Counted from the first letter of the whole stretch, positions 16,124 to 46,563 are shown. The stretch: 63,977 bases of DNA, filler included, from Folioceros fuciformis (GCA_049999805.1; 14 parts of 14 records of this genome joined end to end with filler, not necessarily neighbours in it), one strand, 5' to 3'. The notes: generated by a model from the letters alone, not told the origin. A program made the numbers and translations.

Positions 16124-18419
16124 TTAAAATGAGGAAGGCTCGCCTTCACCAGAAGATCGGCCATGGACGTGTGAAGGTTGCACTATATGTATTGTCTCAG
16201 GGTGTTCGTGGCTCCTGAGGGGCTCATCAGTCTTCTTGTACTTGTACCACTTGGCCACCACAAGATAGGCAAGGAAGTTGAGGAAGCTGAGGACTGCTAG
16301 GAGCCAGTTGAAGTAGTCGACGTGACCACGATTGAGGTTGTTAGGGATCCAACCAGGACTGTTGCCGCGCCTTGTGATCCGAGTGAGTATGGTCACCAGC
16401 AAACTGCTCAAATATGAGCCTAGTGCAACGGTGGTTAGCTGTAGGGCGCTTCCCAGGCTACGCATGGAATCTGGAGACTGGTCATAGAAGAACTCCAACT
16501 GCCCGATGAAAATGAACACTTCAGCGGCTCCTATCAAAAAATACTGAGGAATCTGCCAGAAGATACTTAGAGGGACTGGGTCCTTGTCGTTGTCCAGCAA
16601 TCCGTCCCGCTTGGCTATCTGCAGCCTCTCCATCTCCAAGATCGCAGCTGCCACCATGGCAAATGTCCCAATGGCGAGTCCGATGCCCATCCTCTGAATC
16701 TGGGTGAACCCTCGGGGATTGCCTGTCCAACGTCGGACCAGTGGGACAAGGAGGCGATCATATATAGGCACGCAGATCAAGACACTCAGGATGTCAAATA
16801 TTGACAGAGCAGCGGCAGGTAATTTAAAGTTGGGGCCTATGTGAACGTCCATTCTTGAACCTTGCAGCACAAAAAGAGAGGACATCTGGGCATATATGGT
16901 GGAGAAGATAATTGCCGTCGCCCACACCGGTAAAATGCGGAGTATGACCTTCACCTCCTCCACCTGAGTGACTGTGCAGAGCTGCCACGCTGTGGGAGCC
17001 TTGCCCGTTGCTTGCGGAATGGGTGTCTCAGTTGCGGCCTTGTCCAAGAATCTGAAATGCAGAGTTCGCTTCATGAGATAAAAGTCAAAATGACTGGTTC
17101 AGCATAACAGCTACCAACCAACAACAGGAGAACAAGGAGGACTGGCTTACGTGAACTGTTGGGTATGTTCAAGCTTGCTGTTTGCCTTCTTGTGTTTCTC
17201 TGCCTCGTCCTCGCTCTCCTCATACAGTACTTTTGCAGGAGCCACCTTCCACTTTCTCACTGCAGCAACCAAGACCTGGGCAATCCTGGTCAAAGGGCTG
17301 CCCCCCGGTTTCTGGTGTCTGTATAAAGGGGTACCCAGAAAGAAAAACACAATGGCAATAGCCATGGCTACTGCTGGTATTCCGAATCCCAGAGCCCAGC
17401 TCACATTGTCTTGGATGTACACAAGAATTGAGGATGAAATCAAAGCTCCCACATTGATTGAGAAATAGAACCAATTAAAGAACGAAGTCTTTTTCTTGTT
17501 CTCCTCCACATCATATTCATCAAACTGGTCAGCTCCAAATGAGGAGACACAAGGCTTGATGCCTCCTGTGCCCAGCGCAATCAAATACAGGGCAAAATAA
17601 AAAACACCGATTTGGAGAGAGCTCGATTTTGGGCATACATCTCCACTGCACGCAGGAGGCTTGAGGGAAGGCAACGCTGCTGACAGCGTAAGTAGGGTTG
17701 TACCCTGCACCCATAAAAGAGATTGAAACAGACAAGAGAAGTTAACAGCAAGCCACACCACTACCTTCTCCTCAGGTGGCTGGAAAGCTGCTGAGAGCAT
17801 TTGAAGCCAGTAACGGATGCAGCTTCTTACAATGAGGTAGACAAAGGAGAAGACGGAAATAGTCAAATATCGGCCCCACAGTGCATCAGCCAGGAAAGCT
17901 CCAATAAGGGGAGTTATGTAACAAGTCCCACCCCAATTGTTGACATTGGTGGAAGCAGGGCCACTGCTCTGCCGTAGAACGCCTGTCAAGTAGACCACAA
18001 GGTTTGTCGAAATTCCATAGTAGGCCAGTCTTTCGCAACACTCGTTTCCTGCGGCTCCAACATGCGTATCCCGAAGATGAGAATGTAGTTGGACACCAAA
18101 AAAAAAAAAAGGACAGACACCCCAGGACCACGTCAGCACTTCGACAGCTCACCCAGGATGAAAGGGCAAGCCTTCCAACCACCGGATGTAGACTTGATGG
18201 CAGGCCTGTGCCGGAGGTCCACAGACTCATCCTCGGTGTGGTATCCCGGTATCCGATCCGTCCCCTGTTCGTTCTGCAATATCCAATTTGCTTATAAGAG
18301 ATGACGCTGAAATCGGCAGCGCAGCTTAACAGTCAGAGTCGTGCAATCCAACACACCACAATCCGGACATCGTCGTCCTTCCGGGGAAGCAGGCCCCAGG
18401 CTCGTAAAACGAAGGCCAT
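16124..18419 (-). CDS. NRT1/PTR family (NPF8/PTR-like) peptide/nitrate transporter, multi-exon
   Basis: [22 protein letters not shown] (ExxER motif), [62 protein letters not shown]. The first exon and start (ATG 18419) are tentative. Confidence 0.95.
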
Positions 18420-21943: not shown

Positions 21944-23627
21944 ATGGCTACTCCTCCACCTCCACCACCACCACTGGCACCTTCTCCTCCTGCTCCGATC
22001 ATTAATGTTATGAATGTGAGTACGGATTTTAAGGAGAAAGACCGTTTTGATGACACCAAGTTGAAGTTTGGTCTAAGCGGATGAAGACTGCTCTAAATAC
22101 TCGAGATCTTCTTGCCATCATTGATGGCTCTCTTCCGAAACCACTTGGACCTTCACCCGCTCTCGACTCATGGACAAGGCAAGACAGACAAGCTATGCAC
22201 ATGATTATTTCTAGCTTGGACGAAGTCACTCTCCATCACACCGATGGTGCCCTCACCTTAGCAGAAGCTTGGAGGCAGATCACGAATATTGACCAATCCA
22301 CCAACGTAATGACATTGGTCATGGTTCACAATGAATTTTATTCTTTAAGAATGCAACCTTCTAACAGTGTTGCTACTCATGTGAGCAAGTTTCGGAATTT
22401 GCGTGCTTAACTTGCTGCTTTGGGGTCTCCATTAATAGAGTTCGAAGCTTCGGTGCAGCTACTAGCCAGCCTCCCAGCTAACTTTCAATCTTTTGTTTCT
22501 TCATAGAATGGCATTGTACGTGAAGCTCATCAAGCTGTGCGTGCTAATAAGACACCTTCAATTTCTATCTTCGAGATAGCTGGTGCTCTTTTACAAGAAG
22601 AGGCTTCTAGGTTCAATGTCGACACCTCGAAACATGGTGGTGATAGGGTGATGTTTGTCACCAAAGGTAGACAACCATTCAACAAGCGCAAGAATCCAAA
22701 TGCCAATTGTCGGCCTTCTACTCCTGGTATCACCTCCTTTGGGCCTTCTACACCAAATTCTTCCTCAACCCCTAAACGTAAGGGGACATGTAATTGGTGC
22801 AAAGCCCAAGAACACTGGGAGCAGGAATGCCGTAAGAAGAAGGTTGGTGAGCCCAAGCGGGACACCAAAACCGCTAACACAGCGATTGTTACTAAAGCAA
22901 GGCATAATTCCAAGACCGACATTGCTTTAACAATTTGTTTGGTTGCATTTGAGTATAAATCTTCTTGGCTGCTTGACTCTGCAGCTTCTGCTCACATATG
23001 CAGCCACAAACACATGTTTACGACATATTCGGCGGCTGATGCTCTTCATCGCTTTGTTCTCCTTGGCAATGACTTTGGCCTCTCAATAGCGGGCACTGGC
23101 TCAGAGACTTTCGAATTGGAAGATGGTTCTTCCCTTCTACTCACTGATGTGCTGCATGTACCTCAGATGGCCAAGAATTTAATTTCAGTTCGTCACTTGG
23201 TTAAGGATGGCATCTATAGGCTGGACTTTGGACGTGGTGATTGTCTACTCACTTGGTCTATTCATCCGGGCTGTGTTATTGCACGAGGCCATCCTCGCCA
23301 TGATTATATGTCTTCACCGACAAGCCCATGCTGGCAGTGTTGGCTCCACCGGCGGCTGCTGCTTCGGCTACCACTGACAGGGGGAGCTCACGTCATGGTG
23401 ATGTTTTCTCTGGCACTCTAGGCTTGGCCACATCAATTATTCCAAGCTGTAAACGATGTCTAAGCAAGACTTGTTTAGGGATAGGCTGCCTATTTTTACA
23501 AAGACGTCACTGTTGTGTGAATCTTGTATTTATGCTAAGCAATGCAGTTCACCGTATCCTGATCTTCCTACATGTCGGGCTACTCAGCCCTTGGAGCTTG
23601 TCCACATTGATCTTTGTGGGCCACTCC
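21944..23627 (+). mobile_element. Degenerate Ty1/Copia gag-pol (gag, zinc knuckle, protease, start of integrase)
   Basis: WSKRMKTALNTRDLLAIIDGS, CNWCKAQEHWEQEC, WLLDSAASAHIC, DVLHVPQMAKNLISV, CESCIYAKQ, PLELVHIDLCGP. In-frame stops present. Confidence 0.93.
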
Positions 23628-27079: not shown

Positions 27080-29064
27080 TCAGGATGATACAGCCAACTT
27101 CTGAAGATGCTCAACAAACACTTGCAAGCTGACGTCATCCGTAAAAATAATGTCTCCTCCTGGAGCAGGACTGTTGACTGAGTTGTATGTAGCAGACGGA
27201 TTCAACTTGGCAAGAAGAAACCTTGCTTGCGACGTATGTTGATCACAATCCACCAGACGAGGCACAGGAAAGCGGTCCTTGATAATAGCCGCAGCATCAT
27301 CATGTGGTGCTTGTAAGAGGGCAGCAAAAGCCTGATGCTCAGGTTGATATTGAAAACCTCTTTGGCGCCACTGGGCAATAGTCATACCTCGGAACACAAC
27401 GATGGTGAAGTAAGAGTCCAGGAGCAACAGACGATCCGCAGCAATGGCTGCCACATCCAGTAACGCAGGCTCCGGCGGGGAGTTGAAGGAGTAAGAAATA
27501 AGGGATGGCTGGATCATGACCAAAGAGTTGGTCACATTCTCTCTGTTGAGAACCATCCGAAAATATGCAGTCTCGTCTGGGCTGTTATTGAACACTTGCA
27601 CAAATTGCGATCTGCGGAGGTTGAACATAAACTGCGGATATATGGTGAACCTGTCAGGGAAGCTGAAAGAGCTAGGGTCATCCTTCCTGTACCCTCCGAA
27701 CCTAGAAGACAACCGGATGAGAGCTCTATCCAGCCAGCGTGTGGCATCGAACTCAGGTTCCGTTTCCATCTGGAAGGAGGCTAACCTGGCCATTACCACA
27801 GCCGCAGCCTCCTGATCAAAACCCAACACCAGTTCCTCCACCGCAGATGGGCCATCCGCAGTCGGTCTTGCCACCGTGGTCGAGCGAAGCCTCATCTGGC
27901 CGTCAGGATGCTGATAGTAAGTCACAAACTGCAAGAAAACCTGCTGCTTCATAGCTAACCCCTGACTAGCTGACGTCCCACCGGGAGTGGCGACCACCTC
28001 GAAAAACACCGCCAGTGTTGTGCTGCGGTCAAGCCCACACAGCTTCCACGCCGTCGTATTTCCCTGCCCAATTACAACGTCCGAACACAAGGGCCCTTTC
28101 TTGTCCACGGAAGAGCAGGGACCTATAGTTCCCTGCACCTTGACGTCCTTGGAGCAGGTTACCTCGAACAAGCCGTTGCAGGCCAGGCCAAGGGCGTGAT
28201 CCCCCACCTCAAAAATCCTCGCAAACGAATCCTTGAACACAGAATGCCCGAAGCTCTCCGCCAGCACCACCAAACCCCCGGTCCGCTCCACTGCCACCTT
28301 CATCTCCGCAACCCCGACCTGATCCAGCGCGCAGGCGAAGAGATCCAGCACATGTCCCTGAGTCACGAGCTGCTTGGCCAACCCCTCGTAAAACTTGAGC
28401 GCCTTGAGGTAGTGCGGAACGGCGTCCTTGTCAATATCCTTGTGCGACCTGATCGCTTCCTGCAAATCCGACGACACGATAGTTCCAGGCCCCTCTGTGC
28501 AGGGGCCCCCGACGAAGGTCAGGATTCGAGCTCCCGTCCCCGGCACGCATGCCCCTAGCAAAGCGGCAGCAACTCCCAACGCCGTGCTGGTACAGCGGGA
28601 GGCCCGCTTGTCGGACTGCACGGGGAAGGGATCCCGCTGCAGCTCCTCAAGCACGGCGGTGAGCGTGAGTTCACACTCCGCCACAGGAAGCAGGAAGCGA
28701 GACACGTTGGTGGGAGCGATCCCATCTCGCCTGGCCCCCGGATGCTGGTGCAGTCCGGCTCCGAGAGCCGTGAGCCCTAGCATGTCCAGAATCTGCTCCC
28801 TGCTCACATCCTTGGACCCCCGGAACACATAGGACTTTGGACACTCGGTGAATCCCAATTCGTGCACATGCACCTGCATCCCGAAGGTTATGAGCCCGAC
28901 CAGCGCATTATCCGGAACCAAGGACACGGCCCGACTCAGCGCTTGCTTCAAGAACCCCAGCTCCTCCTCGATCAGGCACGTGTCCAGCACGAAAAGGAAG
29001 ACGGGAGCCACCGCCGCCTCCCCAGGCATCACATACTCCAAGCTCGTGAACTGCTGGTAGAGCT
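27080..29064 (-). CDS. SEC23: COPII coat protein Sec23, 5'-truncated by contig end
   Basis: [105 protein letters not shown]. Confidence 0.97.
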
Positions 29065-29164
29065 NNNNNNNNNNNNNNNNNNNNNNNNNNNNNNNNNNNN
29101 NNNNNNNNTTAATTAATTAANNNNNNNNNNNNNNNNNNNNNNNNNNNNNNNNNNNNNNNNNNNN

Positions 29165-32100
29165 ATTGAACTGTATAACCAAATGCGACGTGTGAATTTG
29201 GATCCTGATAGCCATGTAGTTGTGGCAGTCCTCAAGGCGTGTGTCCGCGCAGCGGATTTGGCAACTGGCAAGCAGGTTCATGCTGATTGGTTAGGAAGCG
29301 GGACCCAGCCTAGCCTGTTCGTGGGCAGCAGCCTTGTGGACATGTATGTGAAATGTGGCAGCTTAGATGATGCTCGCTTAGTGTTCGATAGTCTCCCGGA
29401 AAGAGATGTGGTGATCTGGACTGCCATAATTGCAGAGTATGCTAACCAGGGGCTTGTTGGAGAAGCTCTCACGCTATACGCGCGTATGCAGAAAAGAAGG
29501 CTTCAGTGTAGCAAATCACTTCACATTTGTTTGCCTACTCAATGCCTGTGCAAGTGCAGGGGCTTCGCGTGAAGGGAGGCATCTGCATTCACATATTCAG
29601 GAAAGGTGTCTGGAAGCTCATGTGTTTGTTGGCAGCAGCTAGGTGGAAATGTACGCTAAATGTGAGAGGTTAGAAGATGCACGAAGGCTGTTTGATCGAT
29701 TGCCAACCAAAGATACAGCAACATGGAATGCCATGATTGGTGGTTACGCGGAGCATGGATATGGTCAAGAAGCCTTGTCACTCTATGCAGGTATGCAACA
29801 GGTCGGTCTGAATCCTGCTGATCAGGTGACAGTTCTGTGTCTCCTGAAAGCTTGTGCAAGCATCAGAGATGTAGGCAATGGGGAGGAGCTCATATCTCAG
29901 CTTCAAGGAAAAGGACTGGAAGGTGACATGATGGTTGGCAGTGCCCTGGTCAACATGTATGTGAAATGTGGGAGCCTAGATGATGCCCAGAGGGTGTTTG
30001 ACAATCTGTCCACAAGAGATGTGGTGACGTGGAGGGCTATGATTGCAGGCTACGTAGAGCACGGGCGTTTTGAAGACGCCGTGTCTCTGTACAGTAGTAT
30101 GGAAGATGGAGCTTGCATCCAACCTGATCAAGTTACATTTGTGTGTCTCCTAAGAGCATGTGCCGGCATCGGAGCTCTGAACCAAGGGAGGCTGCTTCAC
30201 TTGAAACTTCAAGATCGGCAACTGGGAACTGATTTGGTGGTCAGCACCAGCCTAATGGACATGTATGCCAAATGTGGCAGCTTAGAAGAGGCTTGCGAAG
30301 TTTTTGAAAAGGTAAACAGAAAAGATTTGGGAATTTGGAATACAATGATCGCAGGGCATGTGCTACATGGGGACTGTCGGGGGGCACTTGCTCTGTATGC
30401 AAGGATGCGACAGGAGGGAACGAATCCTGACCCAGCTACCTTTGCATGCCTTCTGCAAGCGTGTGCCAGCACTGGCGCTCTGCATGATGGCAAGGAGCTT
30501 CATTCTGAGATTCAAGATCAAGGGATGGAAGATGATCTTGCAGCAAACAACAGTCTGATAAATATGTATGCCAAATGTGGCAACCTAGAAGATGCTCGCT
30601 AAGTGTTTGACAAATTGCCCTCAAAGGATGTTATAACTTGGACAACAATCATTGCGGGATATGCTCATCATGACCTAGGTGAGGAAGCCCTTTCTCTTTA
30701 TGAGGACATGCGCAAGGAAGGCTTAAATGTAGCTGATGACGTGACGTTTGCATGCCTTCTGAAAGCGTGTGCAAATGTTGGAGATATCCAACAGGGGCAG
30801 AAGCTTCATTCTGAGATCCAGAAAAGAGGACTGGACGGTGATGTGGTTATTGGCACCTCCCTTGTGGATATGTACGTAAAGCATGGAAAGTTTGAGCATG
30901 CCTAACGTGTGTTTGATAGGTTGTGCTTGAAAAGCGTGGTTACTTGGAATGCAATGATCACAGGACTTCTTCAGCACGGGTTGGACGAGGAAGTTCTCAA
31001 CCTTCATACAAGAATGCAAGACGAGGGTATTACCGCACCCGATCATCTTACATATTTGAGCATCCTAAAATCTTGTTCCAGAACTGGAAATTTGCGGCTG
31101 GGTCAACAACTTCATTCGCAACTTCAGCAGAAGGGTCTAGAAGCTGATCTGGCCATAGGCAGTAGACTGGTGGACATGTATGCCAAATGTGGCAGTGTAG
31201 AGGATGCTCGCAGGGTGTTTGACAGATTGCCCACAAGAGATGCAGTGACGTAGACTTCCTTAAGTGCAGGATATGCTCAACATGGACTCGGTCAGGACGC
31301 TCTGGCTCTTTACAAAATGATGCAAAATGAGGATCTGCCTCCAGCAGATCCTGTCACATATGTGTCGCTCCTAAGAGCGTGTGCCAGTGTTGGGGCTTTG
31401 CATCTGGGAATGCATCTTCACGCTGAGATTCAGGAAAGAGGGTACGAGGTGGATGGAGTGGTTGGCAACAGCCTGGTGGACATGTATGCAAAATGTGGCA
31501 GCTTACAGGATGCGCGTAGAGTATTCGACAGACTGCCCAAACCAGATGTAGTGACATGGACTGTGCTTATAACTGGTTATGCCCAACACGGTGCGAGCCA
31601 TATGGCAATCCAATGGTTCGAAGAGATGGTGCAGCACGGGGTTGAGCCCACTGATGTGACCTTTACCTGTCTTCTCGTAGCATGCAGTCATGAGGGCCTA
31701 GTGAACCCAGCCCAGCAGTACTTCAAGACGATGGTGGAGGACCATGGCATCAGCCCCAGTGTTCAACATTTCAGTTGCATGGTCGACATTCTTGGACGAT
31801 CAGGCCACCTGGACGAGGCGGAAATGATGCTCCGACAACTTCCTGTAAAATATTCTGTTGGATGGAGAACTTTGCTGAATGCTTGCAAAATCCACGGTGA
31901 CACAGAACGTGGACAGCGATGGTTTGACCATGTTGTTGAGTTAGAACCTGAAAACTCTGCTGCGTACACGTTGTTGGCAAGTACATACGCAACCGCTGGC
32001 AGATGGAGAGATGCACAGAGAATAGAAGACATGAGAAAAGCAGCAGGTGCTTTCAAAAAGCCTGCAAGGGCATGGATTGAGGTGAACAAAAGAATTCAAA

Positions 32101-32459
32101 CATTCATTGTCGGGGAAGAGAGGGATGACACCTCCTCCAAGCTCAAGAGTATGAATATGCAGTTGGTGCAACAAGGGGGCCACGTTCCACACACAGGACT
32201 GGTACTGAAGCCAGTCTCAGAAACTGAAAAGGAAGCCGCCCTGTGTGGTCACGCAGAGAAATTAGCACTGGCGTACGGGATGCTTAACACGGCCGATGGC
32301 TCGACTCTCCGAGTCACAAAAAATCTTCGAATGTGTACTGACTGCCACACTGGAACCAAGATGCTGTCCCGGACTGAAAAGAGGGAAATTATCGTGCGCG
32401 ATGATCATCGTATTCACCATTTTGTCAATGGCATGTGCTCATTTGGAGATGCGCCGTGA
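29165..32459 (+). pseudogene. PLS-class PPR-E-DYW (DYW:KP type) pseudogene
   Basis: Repeated LVDMYAKCGSLEDA.RVFD...DVVTW motifs, then KKPARAWIEV, HAEKLALA, CTDC. Lesions: +1 frameshift at about 29492-29495 and stops at 29640, 30600, 30903 and 31251; terminal CSFGDAP. Confidence 0.92.
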
Positions 32460-32815
32460 GATGGCCCCAACAAGTCTTTTCGTGCCTTCCTGCCGATTGT
32501 GTTGAGATCTCGGACTCTTGCAGAGATTTCCCTTGCAGCCGTCGATACCCACAAGCTCAGATCTGCGGCCTTCGTGTACCTGAAGTGTCAAACGCCAACT
32601 CTTCATGGCTTCCCGTCCCACAAAATTTTCTCCACCCGGTTTTCCTGGATATTGATTAACTTCGAATATATTTATCGTTATTGTTATTATTGTCATCCGC
32701 CAGAGGTATTGTATCAATCCGCCCGTTGTTCCTCCAAACATGGGGACCAGGTCGCCAGCAAAAAGTGTGGTCTCCTAAGCAGAAACCGCCCGTGGAAAGC
32801 AAGCTGAAGATTCTG

Positions 32816-35800
32816 TCAATTGCGATCCCCACAAGAACAGAATCCATTCACAAAATGGTGAACACGGTGCTCATCTCTGACGATGATCTCTCTCTGTTCT
32901 ATTCTGGACATGATCTTAGTGCCATTGTGGCAGTCATGGCACATACGGAGGTTCTTACTGACTCGCAAAACTGTCCTATTCGGGGTGTTGAGGAGGCCAT
33001 ATGCCAGTGCCAGTTTCTCCGCATGTCCACACAAGGAATCTTCCTTCTCGCTCTCTGACGTTGGCTTCATCACCAGCTCCGTGTGTGGAACATGGCCTCC
33101 CTGTTGCTTCAACTGGAGGGTCACGCTGTTCAGTTTGGAATGAATGTCATCTCTTTCGTCCCCAACGATGAAGGAGTGGGTTCTGTCGTTCACTTCGATC
33201 CAGGCCCTTGCCGGCTTCTTGTACGCACCAGCAGATATTCTCAAGCCTTCTATCCGCTCCACGTCTCTCCACATACGGGAGCTGGCATACAAGTTTGCCA
33301 ACAGCACATAAGGCCCAGCATTTCGAGGTTCGACTTGGACGAGAGAGTCGAAGCATCGGGTTGCACGTTGGATATCACCGTGTGCTCTGCAGGCGCTCAG
33401 CAGTGACGTCCATCCCACCACATTGCTCTCAAACGGTAAACTTTGCAGCATGCTTTCTGCCTCGTCGAGGTGGCCTGCCCGACCCAGGACGTCAACCATG
33501 ATGTTGCAGTGATGAACACTGGCTGGGATGCCAAAGTCTTGGACCATAGCTCTGAAATAGTGGCGGGCCTCATGGACAAGGCCGTTGTGACTGCATGCCA
33601 CAAGGAGACACAAAAATGTAGCATCGTTGGGCTCCACGCCCTGGTGCTGCATCTCTTGATAACACCGAACTGCCATTGTGCTGTTGCTGTGCTGGCTATA
33701 GCCATTTAGCAGTGCGTTCCATGTCACCACGTTCTTCGAGGGTAGTCTGTCAAACACCTGTTGGGCGCCGTCTAAGCTTCCACATTTTGCAAACATGTCC
33801 ACAAGGCTGCTGCCGACAGCCACGTCTGCTTCCAGCCCCCTTTCCTGTATCTGTGAATGAAGGTGCCTCCCCTGGTTTAACGCTCCAACACTGGCACATG
33901 CTTTCAGCAGGCAGATAAACGTGACAGTATTGGGTGGTTTTGTGGCCTCCTGTTGCATCCGTGCGAACAGAGTGAGGGCCTCCTGGCCAAGCCCATGCTG
34001 CGCATACCCTGCAATCAGAACGTTCCATGTCACTACATCCTTCGTTGGCAGTCTATCAAACACTGCACGAGCATACTCTAAGCTGCCGCATCTTGCATAC
34101 ATGTCCACCAGGCTGCTGCCAACACCAGCATCAGCTTCCAGTTCTCTTGCTTGAACCTCGCAGTGCAGCTCCTTGCCCTTGCTCAACGCTTCAGCGCAGG
34201 AGCATGCATTCAGGAGGCAGACGAATGTAACTGGATCCGCTAAAATCATTCCTTCTCGCTGCATATCTGCATACAGATCGAAGGCCGCTTGACAAAAGCC
34301 CCATTGAGCATATGCAGTGAGCATGGCATTCCATGTAACAACATTCTTGGTTGACAGGTGGTCAAACACTTTGCGGGCAGCCTCTAGGCTTCCACATTTA
34401 GCATACATAGCCACCAGGCTGCTGCCCAGAGCAACATCAGCTTCGAGTCCCCTTTCCACAATATGGAGATGAAGCTGCTTGCCCTGATGCACAGCTCCAA
34501 TGCTTGCACATGCTTTCAGAAGGGAACCCAATGTCGCAGGATCAGCTGAAACCACGCCCTTCTCCCGCATATCTGCGTACAACATGAGGGCTTCTCGACC
34601 AAGCCCGTGCTGCACGTATCCGGCAATCATCGCATTCCATGTCACGACATCTTTCTTAGGCATCCTATCAAACACCCTGCGAGCTTCCTCTAAGCTGCTA
34701 CACTTAGCATACATGTCGACCACGCAGTTACCAACAGTCACGTCAGCTTCAAACCCTCTTTCCTGAATCTCAAGATGAAGCTCCCTGCCGTCACACAGGG
34801 CTCCAGCACTGGCACATGCTTTAAGAAGGCAAACGAACGTGACATGATTAGCCGGAATCTTGCTCTCCTGCTGCATGATTCTATACAACCCAAGGGCCTC
34901 CTTAAAAAGACCATGCTTGGCATATCCTGTGATCATAGAATTCCATGTCACAACATCTTTCGTGCACAAACTGTTAAATACTCTTCGTGCATCCTCTAGA
35001 CTACCGCACTTGGCATACATGTCCACCAGGGAGTTGCCCACGAATATATTAGGCTCAAGCACACTTCTCACAACATCTGCATGCACCTGCTTGCCAGACT
35101 GTAAATCCACTGCACTCGAACACGCCTTGAGGACTGCCACAAAAACATGGTTGGTAGGCTTCACATTCGATTGCCGCATCTGCTGGTACAGCTGCACAGC
35201 CTGCGCTGGCTGCCCATGTTCAGCATGTGCCAAAATCATGAAAGCCCATGAAAAGGTGTCCGGCGCTGCCAAGCTGCTAAACACCAGGGTTGCCTCTTGC
35301 AATTTCCCATGAGCAGCATACATGCGGATGATATGGTTGGCCAAGAATGTGCTCGACAGCTGCCCATGTTTCATACTGAGAGCATGCACCCGCCTTCCAA
35401 CCACCAAGCCATTCTTTGCACTGCACGCTTTGAGCACACTGTACAAGAGAAAGTCAGGAACATAAGACTGTCGCTGGACCATCAGGTCCAAAGCTTCCAC
35501 AGCCTCAGTAGTTTGTGCCTCGAAGCATACTTTGCTCCAGCCTCCAAACTCTGAAGTCCCATGCCCTGGCAGGCACGTCACCTTGTTCCAACTCCTGTCC
35601 CAACAGTTGTCGAGAAAGACGTCACACAATGCCACTGGTCGCTTTGATTCCACTGCAAGCCCAGTTCAGCGTGAGAATTCCTCCGGCCACCCACAACAGA
35701 ACGTCCCGCGCGTAATCGGCACTTACCGGGGCCAGCAACGGAGTCTCGTTGCTCCGCTGCCCCTTGTAGCGATGACAGATGTCTAAACCATTCCTCCATC

Positions 35801-35877
35801 TGGCTACAGGCTCGTGGTCTGCACTTGAACAGGCTCGACGCAACCGGGACGACTCCACCCAGACCTACCCCTCTCAT
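32816..35877 (-). CDS. Intact PLS-class PPR-E-DYW:KP RNA editing factor (candidate U-to-C editor)
   Basis: A 945-codon uninterrupted exon (35652..32816) with P-L-S arrays, KKPARAWIEV, HAEKLALA, CHDC and the end CSCGDRN. A phase-compatible 74-nt intron (35726..35653, GTAAGT...TGCAG) joins a 5' exon starting at ATG 35799 or 35877. Confidence 0.95.
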
Positions 35878-36184
35878 TTCACTCGAGAAGCCCCTCAGTC
35901 AACGTACGTGGGCAGAGTTAGGCACAGGGGATCCCCGATCGTGACCAAGTTCACTTCCGACCATCTCTAATTCTGCCCGAGGTGGCTGAACTAGCCAACC
36001 TTCCAAGGATTTGTGCAGTGAAAAGGTCTTTGGTGACGATCCACAGCACGAAGAGGTGCAGTCATCAGGAGATGTTGGGCACTTGTCTGTACCGACGTTT
36101 GGAATAGGAACATGCGTACAAGTGCTCGAGACGTAACACACAACAACGAAAGGCGGGACATCTTCCTTGCGAGCATCCATGCCC

Positions 36185-37060
36185 ACCTTTCTGTGCATCC
36201 CCACAAGGAGAGGTGCCATCCACAAACCGACGCACACGATCACTGCGGAAAGTGTTTTTTTCAATTCGAGACAAACCCTTAGACAGTAGTACAGTCTTGG
36301 TGACGGATACTAGTCATCCGCAGCACTTGGCAATCTATGACGTCAGTGATCGGAGTGGCTACACAAGGCGTTTTCCTATTGTTTACTGCGTTTTGGAGAT
36401 GGGATCAAGTACCAGTCCAGAGTGTGGAGAGTTATCTCCGTGCTGCACCGACCTGCAGTTTCACACTCTTGAGCTTGGAGGAAGCTTGGGGTCATTCCTT
36501 CCTTTCCCGACATTGAATTGTTTGAAGTTTCCTTGTCACCCCCATGGATGCCTAGCAGGCTTCTTGGTTACCTGACGCGGATCTCAAGTCCTATCCTCTG
36601 TGGCCAACCACTACATCAACGTCGAGTCAGTCCACGTTCCGAATCTGGGCGTCAAGATGCATTGCTAGCAGCGGCACTAGCGCACAGTCTCTTACGAGGA
36701 AGAGATGTAACTGGATCTGCTGGGCAAGCCGTCAGACACCCTCAAAGCATCCTCTACGCTGCCACGTATGGAATATGAGTGCACCACGCTAGTGCCAGTA
36801 TCGAGATCAGCTCCTCAAACCCTTGTGCTGAGGTTGCGAGTGACGTTGTTGACCCTGCCAGCAATTTCAAATACTCAACAGGCTTCTAGGATATGCTCAG
36901 ATACGTCATATAATCGTGTCCGGTGATGCCTCCTCTGGCATTCTTATAGAAAGCTTGGGCACTTCCTAGTCGAACCCCCATGCTCAAGAAATCCTGCGAT
37001 CATAGCATTCCAAGTAGCCCGCGCTCGAAGCCCGGCCTATCGAACTGAAGGTTAACACGC
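36185..37060 (-). pseudogene. Heavily decayed third PPR-DYW:KP copy
   Basis: Minus-strand remnants in the correct order: ATWNAM (about 37005), GTSVVHSYSIRGSVEDALRVSDGLP (about 36760), KKPAR (about 36555), SSKLKSVKLQ...PHSGLVLDP (about 36440), SRIEK...DRVRRFVDGTSPCGDA (about 36220). Confidence 0.8.
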
Positions 37061-37087
37061 TGAGTCCATCCTCCCTCTGCTTGTCGC

Positions 37088-37913
37088 CTATGCATACAGC
37101 GCTTTCAAGTCGTTAGCGAAAGCCTTCTTCACAGCCTCCCTCTTCAGCTTCAATGCCGCAGTGACAAGCCCAGTCTCGGGAGTCCACGCCTCAGGCAGCA
37201 ACCTAATCCTTGTTGGAATCTCAAAATTCTGCAACTTAGCCTGCTTTCCCGCTTGAACCAAAGACTTCAGCACCTCCTGAGCAGCATCCTTGCTCATACA
37301 CAAATCCTTGAGATCCCCAAACTGCACCCCGGTCCTCTTAGCCCAATCCTGCAACGCCGCCTCAGCCGCAACAACCAATGCCACCACAAAGCTGTGGAAC
37401 GGATCCGCGTGCAGCATAATATTGTCGACATACGGACTCACCACCAACGCCGCCTCCACCTTCCCCAAGGACACATACTCTCCATGCTGCAACTTCACGA
37501 TATCCTTCTTCCTGTCGATGATCTCCAAGCACCCATCAGGATGAAACCGCCCAATGTCCCCAGTATAAAACCATCTTATCCCTGTTGCATCCGTCTTGTA
37601 AACCTCCTGTGTCTTAGCGTCATTCTTGAAATACCCCAGAGTCACGCTCTGTCCCCCGATCACAATTTCCCCTCTCGGGTAGGGGGAATCCGACACCCGG
37701 TACCCACCTTCCTCCCAATTCACCAACCTCACGTAACAATGCGGCACCGGCGGCCCCACCCGACCCACAGACGTGTCATCCCACTCACTGAACGTCGCTC
37801 CCGCACAGGTTTCTGTCAGCCCGTATCCCTGCCCAATGGGAGCTCCAAAGCACACATTGATGAACCTCTGCGTGTCCCCAGACAAGGGCGCCCCTCCCGA
37901 CAAGAGCCCCCTC
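37088..37913 (-). CDS. Long-chain acyl-CoA synthetase (LACS8/9-like), 3' part
   Basis: [77 protein letters not shown]. Confidence 0.96.
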
Positions 37914-39099
37914 NNNNNNNNNNNNNNNNNNNNNNNNNNNNNNNNNNNNNNNNNNNNTTAATTAATTAANNNNNNNNNNNNNNNNNNNNNNNNNNNNNNN
38001 NNNNNNNNNNNNNAGAACAGATACTACACTTGATCTTAGCCAAAAGGCCGAGAAAGGTATATTTTACCCTCCGCCCCCTCACCCTCATATATCCCACACT
38101 CGTCACACTCCCTTCCGCAAACGATATGGGGCAACACATCACTAGGTTTTGCAATACATCACAATGCTGTAGCCTCCCTGTCCCCTCAACCACCTCTCCA
38201 ACGTTTCAATACCCTCCCTGAAATCGCAGTGTCTACTTCGATACCCGTGCCCCATACGCGCTTCGCTCCTCCACCTTACAGACACTCACTCGTGCCCACT
38301 TCTGCCCCTGCCCGGCCGCTCACATCAACCGTCAACGACCTTGTCAGCCCATGATAATTTGCGCGCGCCACCACACTTGCTGTTGTCCAAAACATCTCTC
38401 GATTGAGCCGGGCCTGCTCCGGATTGCTGTGCTCTCCGTAATGTTTGCGTTTGCATGCCACTCGCTTCCACCATGGTTTAGGCGTCTTCTGCGATCGCCT
38501 CATGGACAAATATCAGGTGCCCGTTGTGCCTCTCGTTTCTATCGCTCAAACCCCCTCAGCTCACAAGGCCAAATCTTGGATCCGCCGTGGCTTCCCACCT
38601 TTGCTTATTGCTCTTGCGCACGCGATGGATTGCGGCCCGTTTCGCCGGGGCCTTGTTCGCGGTGAGGCACCATCAAGGGCGGATTTCCTGGGCAGCTTTC
38701 AGCCTGCACTCCTGTCCCTTCCAATATTTACATAACCTCATGGCCAAGGTCTGCCCTAACGCATCTTGTCTCATCTCAGGCTCAAGCCTCTCAGCTCACT
38801 TCTGCTGCCTTCCCACCTGTCGTAGCGCAATCATTTGTTAGCTTGATCCAGTGTCCCCGCGGGGCAAGAAGTTCTTCCCCAGGACAAGCCACCGCATTTG
38901 GTTGCTGCAGCCGCAACGAGGAAATGCCCCAAACAGGGGTGGTCCACGCACGCTCCATTGGTGGATGCCTTAGCATGTTTGATCTTAACCTCTACCGCTC
39001 CCGTGGTCAAACGGTTTCCCTAGCGGACGCAGCTGCTTCCCGATTTTCCGGCCGATTTCATTATTTTTACCGATTTTTTATTAGAATGACAAATCTCCC

Positions 39100-42859: not shown

Positions 42860-45800
42860 TGTGGAAGCAAGCTAATACAAAAAAAACATAATTAATTATG
42901 TAGAACAAGGAGTATCTTAAATACAAAATTGTTTGTGTCTATTGAGTTAACTAAGTAACCTAGGGTTACCTATAATTAACTATGTTGGGTTAATATCCCA
43001 ACACCCCCACTAAACCTAACATAGGTTATACAGCAGAAGTACTAAAAAGAGCATCATACCGTAATTAATAGTCGCATATGCGCCAGCTACTCACAAACCT
43101 TGTACGTTTAACACATGACGTCCTGACAGCACTCCTCTTAAGCTTTGCATGCCTCCTGCTTGGTACTGCAGTGACAAGAGCAAGGATGAAGACACGGTCA
43201 AGTGCCTCGCATGGCAGTGGTGATGCAGCCCTCGGCGTCCAAGGGAAACCAGAAGTAGGAGCAAAGAGGCAGGAGCAAGTCAGGCGTGCAGGCACCCTGC
43301 AAACTTGAAGAGGAACCCCAGCTACTGTGCATGCTCAGTTTCAAATAGAAGCCCCTGCTCCTGCTGTTCGTCCTCGCAATCCTAGCAATCACCCAGTGAT
43401 AGAGCTAGAATCCTCTGATTCCTTCAAAGCATCCAGGCCTAGCTTGATAGATATAGACCCAAAACCCAATTCCACGGATGACGAAGTGGAGAGCATTCCT
43501 CACAGCAAAGCCAGGGCTCTTGGAGGACCTTCCACAACTCTCATGCTAATTGAACACGTAGAAGCTATCTTTACAACGCTGGTTGAGATAGAGAATCTAC
43601 TAGACGTGAAGAGGGCCGAGGTGGCTAAGCAATAAGTAGCTTTGGTTGAAGAATCTGTTGAGAGAGCTACAGTTGCCGCAAACAAGGCCCTCGAGGACAT
43701 GGGAGTACACAAGGCAAGAAGTGTGGGACGTGATTGTAGTGTGTGCACCCACCGCAGTAGGCTATGCCCCTTGTGTGGAAAGAAGCTGTATGAGGTGAGA
43801 AGTCTATTTACCCAAGTAACAAGTTCTGCCCACGTTTAGATAAAGTTTAACACTGTTGTGATTCACTGGATAGAATTGATGCATAGGCTAACACTAAACC
43901 TATTCTCCTGTGCATAAAGGCTATGAGCCTAGTGTTGTCCCCCTTAAGTAATACCAGTCTACAGAGAAGAAGTGGCAAGAGCCACTAAGGTGCAGAACCT
44001 ATTATGTGGATAGGACAGAGTGTGAACACCAGCACTAGTTGTAGCCCTGCACATAGACATAGTTAGCTATTACCAGTAGCATAGCTGAACTGTTTAAGTC
44101 CAAGTGCAGCCATGTGCAGAAAGTGTTTTGCTTTGGGAAGCCTTTTTGTGAATATGTCGGCTATGTTTTAATGTGTGCTAACATACTCGACCTTGATGGA
44201 GCCTCTCTCTACTGCATCTCGTATATAATGATGATAGAGCTCTATGTGCTTTGTCCTCGCGTGAAATCTTTGATTGGAGACAAGGGCAATAGCGCTCATG
44301 TTATCATACTGCAAAGTTGTTGGTCCTTGCTGTGTCTACTATACTAACTCCAGGAGTTGCTTCTGCCACTCAACTTCTTTGCAGACATGTGTAAGTGCCT
44401 TGTATTCTGCTTCGGTGGAAGACAAAGCCAGAGAAGTCTATTTCTTGCAACTCCAATTGATAGAGCCAGAAGCAAGAATAAAACAGTAGGCGGAGAAACT
44501 CCAACGAGTATATGCATCTGATGCCCAATCAGCGTCGGAATAAGAGATAAGTTCCAGAGTTTTGATTTCGCTTGCAGCATATTATAGGCCATATAAGATA
44601 GTGCCTTTAAGATATCTTTGTATCCTTTTTACAGCAGCCCAGTGTAGTCTTCGTGGTTGCTTAAGGAATTGAGAAGCTTGACTAACAGCGTATTATATAT
44701 CAAGACGAGTTCAATTTGCAAGGGAAGATAAGACAACCCACGGCTTCAACATAAGGTACAGATTCCATGTCTTTGATATCCTCTGCACTTTGAGCAGACA
44801 TATCAGCTATAAGTTTCTCCCCCATTGCTGAGGGCGTGGAGACATGTCTGGCTTCATCAAGATGAAACCTTTTAAGGATCTCCTTCAAATATTTGGTTTG
44901 ATGTAGAGTGATGAGTTTTGCTTGCCTATTCCTCAAAATTTGTATTCCTAAACAAAACGGGAGCTCACCCTGATCAGTCAACTCGAACTCCTGCATGAGA
45001 ATGCTCTTAACCGTATCTAACTGCCTTGTGTCATTGCTCAGGAGCACACAGTCATCAACATATAGGGCTAGTATGACGAAAAGAGATTCTATGGCTAAGA
45101 GGAAAACATTAGTGTCAGCAAGGCTCTAAACAAAACCTAGCTTACGAAGGTACTTCATGATCCTCCTGTACCATGCCCTTGGGCTTTGTTTTAACCCGTA
45201 AATTGTTTTGAGAGGTTTGCATACCTTCTTGGCCCATTTTTTACTAACAAACCCTTGTGGCTGTTGCATGTACAAGGTTTCTTCAAGCTCTCCATGCAAA
45301 AAGGTTGTGCACACATCCATTGGGTGGACCTCCAAGCTGAAATCAGTAGCCATGGCCAGCAAGATACAGACTAATGGAGGTTTAACCATTGCAGAAAACG
45401 TGTCACAGCAATCGATACCCGGAATCTGGCTAAAGCCCCTGGCCACTAAATGTGATTTGTACCTGGCAATGGTGCCATCTGCTATAAGTTTTGTTTTAAA
45501 TACCCATTTGCAACTGATGGGTTTCCTTCTTGCTAGCATATGGACAAGCTCCTAGGTGTTATATTTAATGAGGGATGCATACTTTTTATCAATTGAAGTC
45601 CTCCAATTTCGACCATCAGGCCTATTTACTGCTTCATCGTATGTCTGGGGATCAGGCCTCACTTCAGGTACTTTAAAATCTGAGACATGAGCCTATGCCC
45701 TTCTAAAGTCAATAGCTTGATATGGAGGTTCATCCCACTGTTCACATGGTTGTCTGTCCTTTGTAGGATAGCAAGGAGTAGGCTCATCAGGTTCATCATA

Positions 45801-46563
45801 AGCAACAGCATGGGCAGCAGCAACATCCTCACCATCTAAAAAATCGGCCAGTTCTACCCCCATTATAGAGTCTGGCCGAGCATCTCCAAAACCCCGTATA
45901 GCAGACTCATCCTCCCCTGCAAGACCCATGTCTACATCTGGTAAGGGTGCTAGAGCATCTTGTGCCCCATCAGATTCAGGATAATCAACTAGTTGTTGTT
46001 GGACTAAAGGTGCTGGAACAACTGTAGGAATTACTGGTGGGCCTTGTGCAAGAACTGTCTGGACAGCTGGAGTAGAAGGGTCTAAGAGATCATCTACTTT
46101 GAGTTGGCCAGTATCCTCAGAAGGATCATTAGATACTCGTAAATCAACAATTGGTGGGTTTCTAGGGGCAGTGAGCTCATCGAACGTCACACTGCAAGCT
46201 AGCACAACACGCTGAGTTGAAGGTTCGTATAGCTTGTATGCCTTAGAAACTTTTGAATAGCCAAGGAAAATATATGGCTTGGCCCTATTATTTAATTTCT
46301 TGCGTCGTTGCTTGGATACATACGCATAGGCTGGGGAGCCAAGACTCTCATATGCAAAAGACTCAGCTTTCGCTTCCAAAATGCTTCATAGGGAGTTTTT
46401 TCAGGCACAGAAGTCGTAATAACCTTGTTTAAGATATAGGCCGCTATAGATAAGGCTTCTGCCCAATAGTGCTTGGGTAGTCCTGCCCATCCCAGCATGC
46501 TTCTAGTCATTCCCATGAGTGTGTGATTCTTGAGTTCAGCCACACCGTTTTGTTGTTGGGTGT
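42860..46563 (-). mobile_element. Degenerate Ty1/Copia element: integrase, RT, RNase H, PPT and 3' LTR (43003..42860)
   Basis: QQNGVAE, YWAEA, CKWVFKTK...YKSHLVARGFSQIPGID, LYVDD, NIADIFTK. G-rich PPT followed by TGTTGGG...TTCCACA. Confidence 0.93.

Follow-up and report, generated by a model that had tools for sequence, protein, structure and literature searches.

A putative working DYW:KP gene, a broken paralogue and an inverted relic share one contig in Folioceros fuciformis

Results and discussion

Within a window of 63,977 nucleotides of Folioceros fuciformis DNA (GCA_049999805.1; "the window" denotes this whole stretch), a single contig carries three sequences of the pentatricopeptide repeat (PPR) family, all with a deaminase-like DYW domain of the KP kind, which we call copies 1, 2, and 3. 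The reading that we favor and consider likely is that they comprise one working DYW:KP gene (copy 2), a young pseudogene (copy 1), and an old inverted relic of a copy-1-like gene (copy 3). An earlier note on this DNA, made from the sequence by eye, had described a gene cluster in three stages of decay, and three such stages are indeed found, with copy 2 open, copy 1 lightly broken, and copy 3 heavily eroded. DYW:KP proteins are, to our knowledge, the sole known U-to-C RNA editing enzymes. The contig and its main elements are as follows:

29165..37913 (8749 bp): single contig with all three PPR copies, artificial spacers on both sides
29165..32459, + strand: copy 1, PLS-E1-E2-DYW:KP pseudogene, 5' cut by the contig end
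32460..32815, no strand: 356-bp spacer between the convergent stop codons of copies 1 and 2
32816..35652, - strand: copy 2, exon 2 and stop, with six L1S1/P1L1S1 units, P2L2S2, E1, E2, and DYW:KP
~36194..37045, - strand: copy 3 relic, 5'-truncated, 42 bp past the stop codon of an acyl-CoA-synthetase-like gene

The window is made of 14 separate contigs of ~1.7-9.7 kb each, joined artificially by 13 identical spacers (N44-TTAATTAATTAA-N44) at 13 places within 1843-62086, for example at 29065-29164 and 37914-38013, and gene order across the spacers is therefore meaningless. Because copy 1 starts at the contig edge (29165), its 5' truncation is the contig end and not decay, and because the Sec23 gene to its left belongs to another contig, that gene gives no linkage information. 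The contig with the three DYW:KP members of the PLS class would be nuclear DNA of a bryophyte-like land plant, very probably a hornwort. Read evidence comes from four runs, examined as Logan contigs only: X1, the possible source of the assembly; X3, another sample of the same organism and perhaps RNA, which is a guess; X4, from a related organism B; and X5, from a related organism C.

The three copies are of the DYW:KP kind

Copies 1 and 2 belong to the PLS-E-DYW family, with PPR, E motif, and DYW_deaminase matches in Pfam and, by motif-by-motif segmentation, P-L-S triplets followed by P2L2S2, E1, E2, and DYW. The presence of KKPARAWIEV in these two copies and of KKPAR in the third, previously noted by eye, is borne out when the three copies are aligned with P0001, which is hornwort-like, with P0238 from a named fern, and with three proteins of the PG type; these last three read PGRTWIEV, PGCSWIEV, and PGWSYIEV at this box. 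At the active site, copies 1 and 2 have GHAEKLA followed by CTDCH (copy 1) or CHDCH (copy 2), against HSEKLA in the PG rows, and both lack the xHP element, leaving a four-column gap opposite HPQM, HPQT, HLRT, and the "shpq" of 9kfx. Copy 2 ends in GDRN and copy 1 in GDAP, so that the final triplets are neither DYW nor exactly DRH or GRP; the nearest database proteins end in GDRH, GGRP, GDAH, and GDSP. In both copies a lysine within S/T-K-N-L-R-M-C, 21 residues past the E of HAE, would match Lys88 of the synthetic protein KP6 by our own counting. A tree separates 37 KP-like rows, including copies 1 and 2 and the named fern proteins P0238 and P0179, from eight PG rows with a Shimodaira-Hasegawa-like approximate likelihood ratio test value of 99. 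The best solved relatives, the PPR-DYW structures 9kfx (6.6e-41) and 7o4e (1.3e-36) among them, are all of the PG kind. Judged by these sequence features, all three copies are PLS-class PPR/DYW sequences of the KP kind; from family membership we infer U-to-C activity and organellar targeting for the window copies.

These features can be set against published descriptions. The PG and KP kinds of DYW domain differ in the box, xHP, HxE, and terminus, with a highly conserved alanine and a mostly missing xHP in the KP kind, and KP domains are described as confined to hornworts, lycophytes, and ferns, with DRH and GRP as two hornwort variants (PMC9478123). A conserved active-site lysine, Lys88 of KP6, is reported as essential for U-to-C editing (PMC11845758). 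DYW:KP proteins of hornworts are candidate U-to-C editors, and the synthetic consensus proteins KP1-KP6 are demonstrated ones (PMC9478123, PMC11845758, PMC11332814); synthetic proteins were used since hornworts and ferns were until recently not transformable (PMC9478123).

What copies 1 and 2 share with the DRH- and GRP-type DYW:KP proteins of hornworts is the PLS array, the P2L2S2-E1-E2-DYW-like order, KKPARAWIEV, HAE, the absence of xHP, and CxxC, and likewise the lysine of SKNLRMC/TKNLRMC and a non-DYW end. They differ in ending with DRN (copy 2) and DAP (copy 1) in place of DRH or GRP, and the locus differs in that copy 1 is broken and copy 3 a relic. With canonical DYW:PG proteins (OTP86/At3g63370, 7o4e; DYW1, 7w86; the synthetic PPR-DYW protein 9kfx) they share the deaminase-like fold family (E 1e-33 to 7e-41), the HxE...CxxC zinc site, and the C-terminal CxC, whereas the canonical proteins have a PG box (xPGxSWIEV), HSE, an extra xHPQ, a DYW end, and C-to-U catalysis where the window copies have the KP box and HAE.

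Copy 1 looks like a young pseudogene

Copy 1 is laid out as a partial P1, an L1-S1, seven P1L1S1 triplets, P2L2S2, E1, E2, and DYW. It reads in frame 2 from 29165 to ~29494 and then in frame 3 to a TGA at 32457-32459, and tblastn with copy 2 as the query recovers the same two frames (frame 2 at 29165-29545 and frame 3 at 29436-32450) at 53.6% identity over 872 residues. When it is read through with X at the breaks, Pfam reports PPR (8e-117), the E motif, and DYW_deaminase (4.9e-34). The damage amounts to four in-frame stops and one frameshift, the same count as in the earlier note:

29492..29495, + strand: AAAA run with a +1 frameshift; one base shorter in contigs of organisms B and C
29640..29642, + strand: in-frame TAG; B and C have TTG (Leu, the repeat consensus)
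30600..30602, + strand: in-frame TAA; same letters in the X1 record, with 0 differences
30903..30905, + strand: in-frame TAA; same letters in X1
31251..31253, + strand: in-frame TAG at the W of a P1 motif (VTW); same letters in X1
32037..32456, + strand: DYW:KP domain, stop-free, with KKPARAWIEV from 32055, HAE, CTDCH, and the end CSFGDAP

The last 401 codons of copy 1 are open, and its C-terminal CxC is spoiled, with CSF where CSC is expected. The idea that U-to-C editing mends the stops was rejected, as the gene is nuclear and a frameshift is beyond the reach of editing; moreover, at two of the four stops the residues lost are Leu and Trp, and a T-to-C change would bring neither back.

Copies 1 and 2 and the acyl-CoA-synthetase-like gene all have counterparts in organisms B and C, ~92-94% identical overall and ~92-93% in the contigs compared with copy 1. 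Both organisms carry a T at 29641, which turns TAG into TTG (Leu), and one A fewer in the AAAA run, so that two of the five lesions are absent from them. Because two related organisms lack these lesions, the death of copy 1 looks recent and lineage-specific, and copy 1 looks like a young pseudogene that died in its own lineage. Among the 36 differences listed between B/C and copy 1 for 29198-29875, 14 are synonymous and 22 are not, and among these B and C keep the repeat consensus at four places where copy 1 has lost it (ERG-LEA, AKCG, GAL, and SSL).

If the lesions were errors of sequencing or assembly, copy 1 would be a working gene, and we regard this as highly improbable. It is true that the lesions are covered just by X1, possibly the assembly's own source, and that the frameshift sits in a homopolymer. 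However, the lesions are five in number and lie apart, and four are base substitutions; Logan's independent assembly of X1 has the same letters at them at a depth of ~8-11: the X1 contigs tile the copy-bearing contig with 0 differences, and the records at 29331-30275 and 30260-31490 cover all five. The departures from the repeat consensus at places that B and C conserve, and the CSF end in place of CSC, also speak against mere error.

That the contig is chimeric, joined through PPR repeats so that the cluster is not real, we hold to be very improbable as well. In its favor, no listed piece covers the whole of 29165-37913, a large number of contigs stop at the same repeat borders, and repeat-induced joints are listed by the hundred. 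Against this, unitigs of X1 cover the stretch from one end to the other with 0 differences, and among the pieces of X3 that are identical to the contig (29944-30219 and 31895-32618 in copy 1, most of copy 2, and 36316-37913), 31895-32618 links the DYW domain of copy 1 with the spacer and 36316-37913 links the acyl-CoA-synthetase-like gene with the PPR part of copy 3.

In all four runs, summed contig depth leaps to thousands at 31209-31500 and 35005-35296 (for example, 3499 in X1 and 41624 in X5). The most conserved core of the repeats (...DMYAKCGS...ARRVFD...) falls in these bins; hundreds of PPR genes have it in common at >=90%, and assemblies break there.

Copy 2 is probably a working gene

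The stop-to-stop open frame of copy 2 runs over 949 codons on the - strand (32816-35665, stop codon 32816-32818), and Pfam finds PPR, PPR_2, E_motif (1.8e-12), and DYW_deaminase (4.7e-35) in it. Its DYW domain has KKPARAWIEV from 33220 downwards, HAE, and CHDCH, and the protein ends in CSCGDRN. Homologues align from ~35560, and the first in-frame ATG (35482) falls within the first PPR-like motif. A small upstream intron would supply both a start and a leader:

35653..35726, - strand: predicted 74-nt GT-AG intron (G|GTAAGT...CAG|), with a phase that suits both exons
35727..35877, - strand: predicted exon 1, ATG at 35877-35875, 50 codons and one base

The predicted intron encloses the in-frame TGA at 35668-35666, and R, S, A, G, and V abound in the exon 1 leader, which weakly resembles the N-terminus of protein P0012 (E 0.002 in one search and 0.04 in another). 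On balance, a model of two exons with the 74-nt 5' intron and a product of 995 aa seems fairly probable. The earlier description of an intact, convergent - strand copy 356 bp away therefore stands for the open 949 codons, the orientation, and the gap, while an ATG and a leader come only with the inferred intron; "intact" here needs a small 5' intron that the open reading frame track conceals.

We consider it unlikely that copy 2 is dead or crippled too, its true 5' part lost and the product from the ATG at 35482 leaderless with a clipped first repeat. Such a loss would fit the lack of any ATG between the upstream TGA (35668-66) and 35482, an X3 contig that is collinear with the genome across the proposed acceptor, and the weak homology of exon 1. 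Yet the proposed intron has a perfect donor (G|GTAAGT) and an in-phase CAG acceptor, it takes in the in-frame stop, and exon 1 begins with an ATG; exon 2 has 944 lesion-free codons that retain all the catalytic marks; and a contig of organism C spans 32818-34523 with 109 differences and 0 gaps. Copy 2 is thus, as far as these features tell, a probable working gene.

The many single-base deletions in the copy 2 counterpart of organism B (X4) were considered as signs of pseudogenization and dropped. Nearly all lie beside G/C homopolymers and are possibly technical, and organism C shows none.

The N-terminal 40-110 residues of several KP-type homologues (P0004, P0007, and P0012) carry a motif, PS(D/Q)WW.NR...PDFRHK...LWL, that looks similar to the "PDF motif" found in the organellar single-stranded-DNA-binding (OSB) proteins of plants. 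Pfam assigns no family to the N-terminal extension of P0004, and a PDF-like N-terminal motif is not detectable upstream of copy 2.

Copy 3 is an old inverted relic of a copy-1-like gene

The third, heavily eroded - strand copy of the earlier note proves to be a real relic, for a translated comparison of 36185-37060 with its neighbors gives scores that shuffled sequences do not attain. Its PPR stretch (37015-36713) scores 38.5 bits against copy 2, which 0 of 300 dinucleotide shuffles reach (mean 17.7, maximum 26.6), and its DYW remnant (36565-36197, KKPAR...CGD) scores 28.1 bits, which 0 of 500 shuffles reach (mean 16.3, maximum 24.6). Pfam alone finds no DYW family in copy 3 at E<=1 and a PPR at E 0.0029, short of the cut-off. 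This yields nothing usable; only comparison with the neighbors reveals what copy 3 is.

The blastn matches to copy 1 fall into three collinear inverted blocks:

36721..37045, - strand: block A, corresponding to copy 1 30911-31233; 75.6% over 328 nt, E 7.7e-58
36598..36723, - strand: middle block, corresponding to copy 1 31341-31471; 70%, E 2e-8
36390..36602, - strand: block C, corresponding to copy 1 32014-32224; 72% over 218 nt, E 1e-24

A repeat search finds the same arms of copies 1 and 3 as inverted repeats I4, I7, and I9 (block A) and I8 and I11 (block C). Against copy 2, in contrast, blastn gives hits of just 34-67 nt at E>=4e-4, and in the DYW part copy 3 shows 72.8% identity with copy 1 against 65.2% with copy 2. 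Given three collinear inverted blocks with copy 1 and only short matches to copy 2, copy 3 derives by partial, inverted duplication from a gene like copy 1 rather than from copy 2, as far as alignment of the contig's own copies can tell.

Copy 3 has 11 stops in its two translated stretches, six in the DYW part and five in the PPR part, and at least two frame changes. It has lost HxE and also ~13 residues around CxxC, keeps KKPAR at 36565-36551, and shows internal deletions of ~107 nt and ~542 nt relative to copy 1, the second of which removes P2 to E1. Everything 5' of the sixth triplet of copy 1 is missing, and what it retains is ~1.7 triplets and the damaged DYW remnant. This internally deleted copy, directly behind the acyl-CoA-synthetase-like gene, is much older than the decay of copy 1. 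At 90% likeness, X4 and X5 cover next to nothing of copy 3 and of the space between copies 2 and 3 (35589-36756).

The gene in front of copy 3 lies outside the PPR family:

37088..37913, - strand: AMP-binding (long-chain acyl-CoA synthetase-like) gene by Pfam, C-terminal 274 codons and stop

It shows no intron in this interval and is cut by the contig end. An X3 contig of 3313 letters runs unbroken from this gene through the PPR part of copy 3 (36316-37913) at a depth of 44.5, against 2.7-16.6 for the PPR pieces. X3 depths thus range from 2.7 to 44.5, compared with 6-11 in X1, a mere hint of RNA; if X3 were RNA, which is a guess, the copy 3 relic would now be part of the 3' untranslated region of the acyl-CoA-synthetase-like gene.

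Copies 1 and 2 are old paralogues

Identity between copies 1 and 2 is 64.7% across their last 240 aa and 53.6% overall. In that C-terminal region the best database proteins reach 59-64% identity with either copy, and the two copies are thus as far from one another as from these proteins; the protein database searches gave no match above 65% identity for the PPR copies, the B and C loci lying outside the collection searched. Third codon positions are 46.8% identical over 400 aligned codons, and among identical A/G/P/T/V/L/R/S codons the third base is shared in 62 of 143, so that silent sites between the two copies are saturated. In a tree of E/DYW regions with 45 rows (the two window copies, 35 KP-like, and eight PG-type sequences; rows and outgroup chosen by us), copies 1 and 2 fall into a basal polytomy of the KP group, where they are nearest to each other by path (0.57) and no fork reaches 80. 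All of this indicates that copies 1 and 2 are old paralogues and not a recent tandem pair; since they are not close relatives, the cluster is not a recent tandem array. The number of repeats is not the same in the two, nor are the fifth and last residues where their motifs align, and by a PPR code table they should therefore bind different RNAs. In copy 1 the P and S positions read A.GU.G..GU.UG.AU.GG.U, with the P2-E2 positions after them.

Neighbors that are mutual closest relatives, as expected of tandem duplicates, are thus not seen in copies 1 and 2 and are seen in copies 3 and 1, for the latter pair relative to copy 2 only. The expectation that the three copies would prove close relatives accordingly fails for copies 1 and 2 (64.7% identity, polytomy) and holds for copies 3 and 1 (75.6% over 328 nt). 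The local birth and death suggested at the outset survives as one local inverted duplication and three states of decay, and falls as a recent tandem family.

Clusters of Rf-like P-class PPR genes in flowering plants consist of local paralogues and pseudogenes that undergo birth and death. Those arrays are of the P class, recently duplicated, and highly similar, whereas here the long copies are deep paralogues and only an old fragment, in inverted orientation, is a duplicate.

In hornworts and lycophytes, the PPR family is reported to have grown mainly by dispersed duplication linked to retroposition (PMC13386178). This report, the depth of the split between copies 1 and 2, and a paralogue comparison confined to the contig all lend something to the view that the clustering is a chance product of dispersed, retroposed insertions and that copy 3 derives from an unseen paralogue elsewhere that resembles copy 1. 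We nonetheless rate it as rather improbable. Copy 3 matches one specific triplet of copy 1 at 75.6%, with other triplets giving just short hits of 30-35 bits, and the two lie 4 kb apart. No poly(A) tract was seen in the 356-bp spacer, the sole flank inspected; the direct repeats of the contig are units inside the copies and one match between copies 2 and 3, none of them at a copy boundary; and copy 2 seems to retain an intron. A local inverted duplicate and a retained intron, the latter predicted, would belong to a minority mode of PPR expansion.

A possible history of the locus

How the three copies came to their present states can be sketched as a model. The PPR array of a DYW:KP protein reads organellar RNA base by base, and its C-terminal deaminase-like domain then turns a U ~four bases 3' of the bound stretch into C. 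By family membership, copy 2 would be imported into an organelle and bind one or a few RNAs through its ~20 repeats. Copy 1 would have edited another site until recently, when this lineage acquired four stops by single-base changes and a frame slip in a run of A; far earlier, a piece of a gene like copy 1 would have been duplicated in inverted orientation 4 kb away, decaying into copy 3.

For C-to-U factors of angiosperms, PMC4727281 reports that an editing factor disintegrates quickly after its site is lost, with RARE1 and CRR28 as the cases. This published rule of factor loss makes the loss of an editing site the natural guess for the death of copy 1. As in the RARE1 and CRR28 losses, decay in one lineage of a PLS-DYW gene specific to a site goes with an open copy in close relatives; those two, however, are C-to-U factors with known lost sites, and copy 1 is of the U-to-C kind. 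More tentatively, we raise the possibility that copy 1 is an intermediate, a natural U-to-C editing factor that lost its use in this one species once the organelle genome had C fixed at its target in place of T, while sister species keep both the gene and the edit.

Several points weigh against our account of the locus as a whole. None of the five lesions of copy 1 lies under the listed X3 pieces, so that the lesions rest on one sample, and the comparison with B and C extends to two of the five, the frameshift in the AAAA run and the stop at 29640. Among the contigs listed, none spans the whole 8.7 kb, and PPR repeats favor misjoins. Copy 1 was ranked as the relative of copy 3 against copy 2 only. 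As for copy 2, no spliced reads over the intron were seen in the Logan contigs, an X3 contig (35322-35691) runs unspliced into the predicted intron, the likeness of exon 1 to other N-termini is weak (E 0.04), and without the intron the start falls inside the first repeat, with no leader.

A factor that is broken in one species and open at the same places in relatives offers a cheap comparative route to pairing factors with sites; apart from this route, the locus shows the usual turnover of a family that runs to many hundreds of genes. If copy 1 is such an intermediate, comparing the organelle genomes and editomes of Folioceros fuciformis (organism A) with those of B and C would match a natural DYW:KP protein to its site with no need for transformation, and the pair of copies 1 and 3 would indicate that local inverted duplication, and not retroposition alone, can give rise to KP factors.

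Other contigs of the window

A Sec23 frame (27080-29064, - strand) is open and intronless for 661 codons before a contig end cuts the gene. It is 87% identical to a 746-aa protein on a 10.8-kb contig and, among named proteins, 76-77% identical to those of liverworts, 73% to that of a lycophyte, 72-73% to those of Ginkgo, and 68-70% to those of ferns. This bryophyte-like profile, taken with KP-type factors whose nearest database proteins end in DRH and GRP, makes a hornwort the very probable source of the DNA. An intronless gene of this length is unusual in a land plant.

A further PPR-like stretch lies on another contig at 60972-61376 (- strand), 29-47% identical to repeats of copy 2 at E ~1e-6. 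At 16127-18148 (- strand), a POT/PTR2 (NRT1-type) transporter is split into two open frames ~50 nt apart (17099-17149), which suggests a very short intron. Retroelement polyprotein fragments with Pfam matches to Pol beta-barrel and retroviral SH3-like domains are found on other contigs at 22507-23418 (+ strand) and 45696-46385 (- strand).

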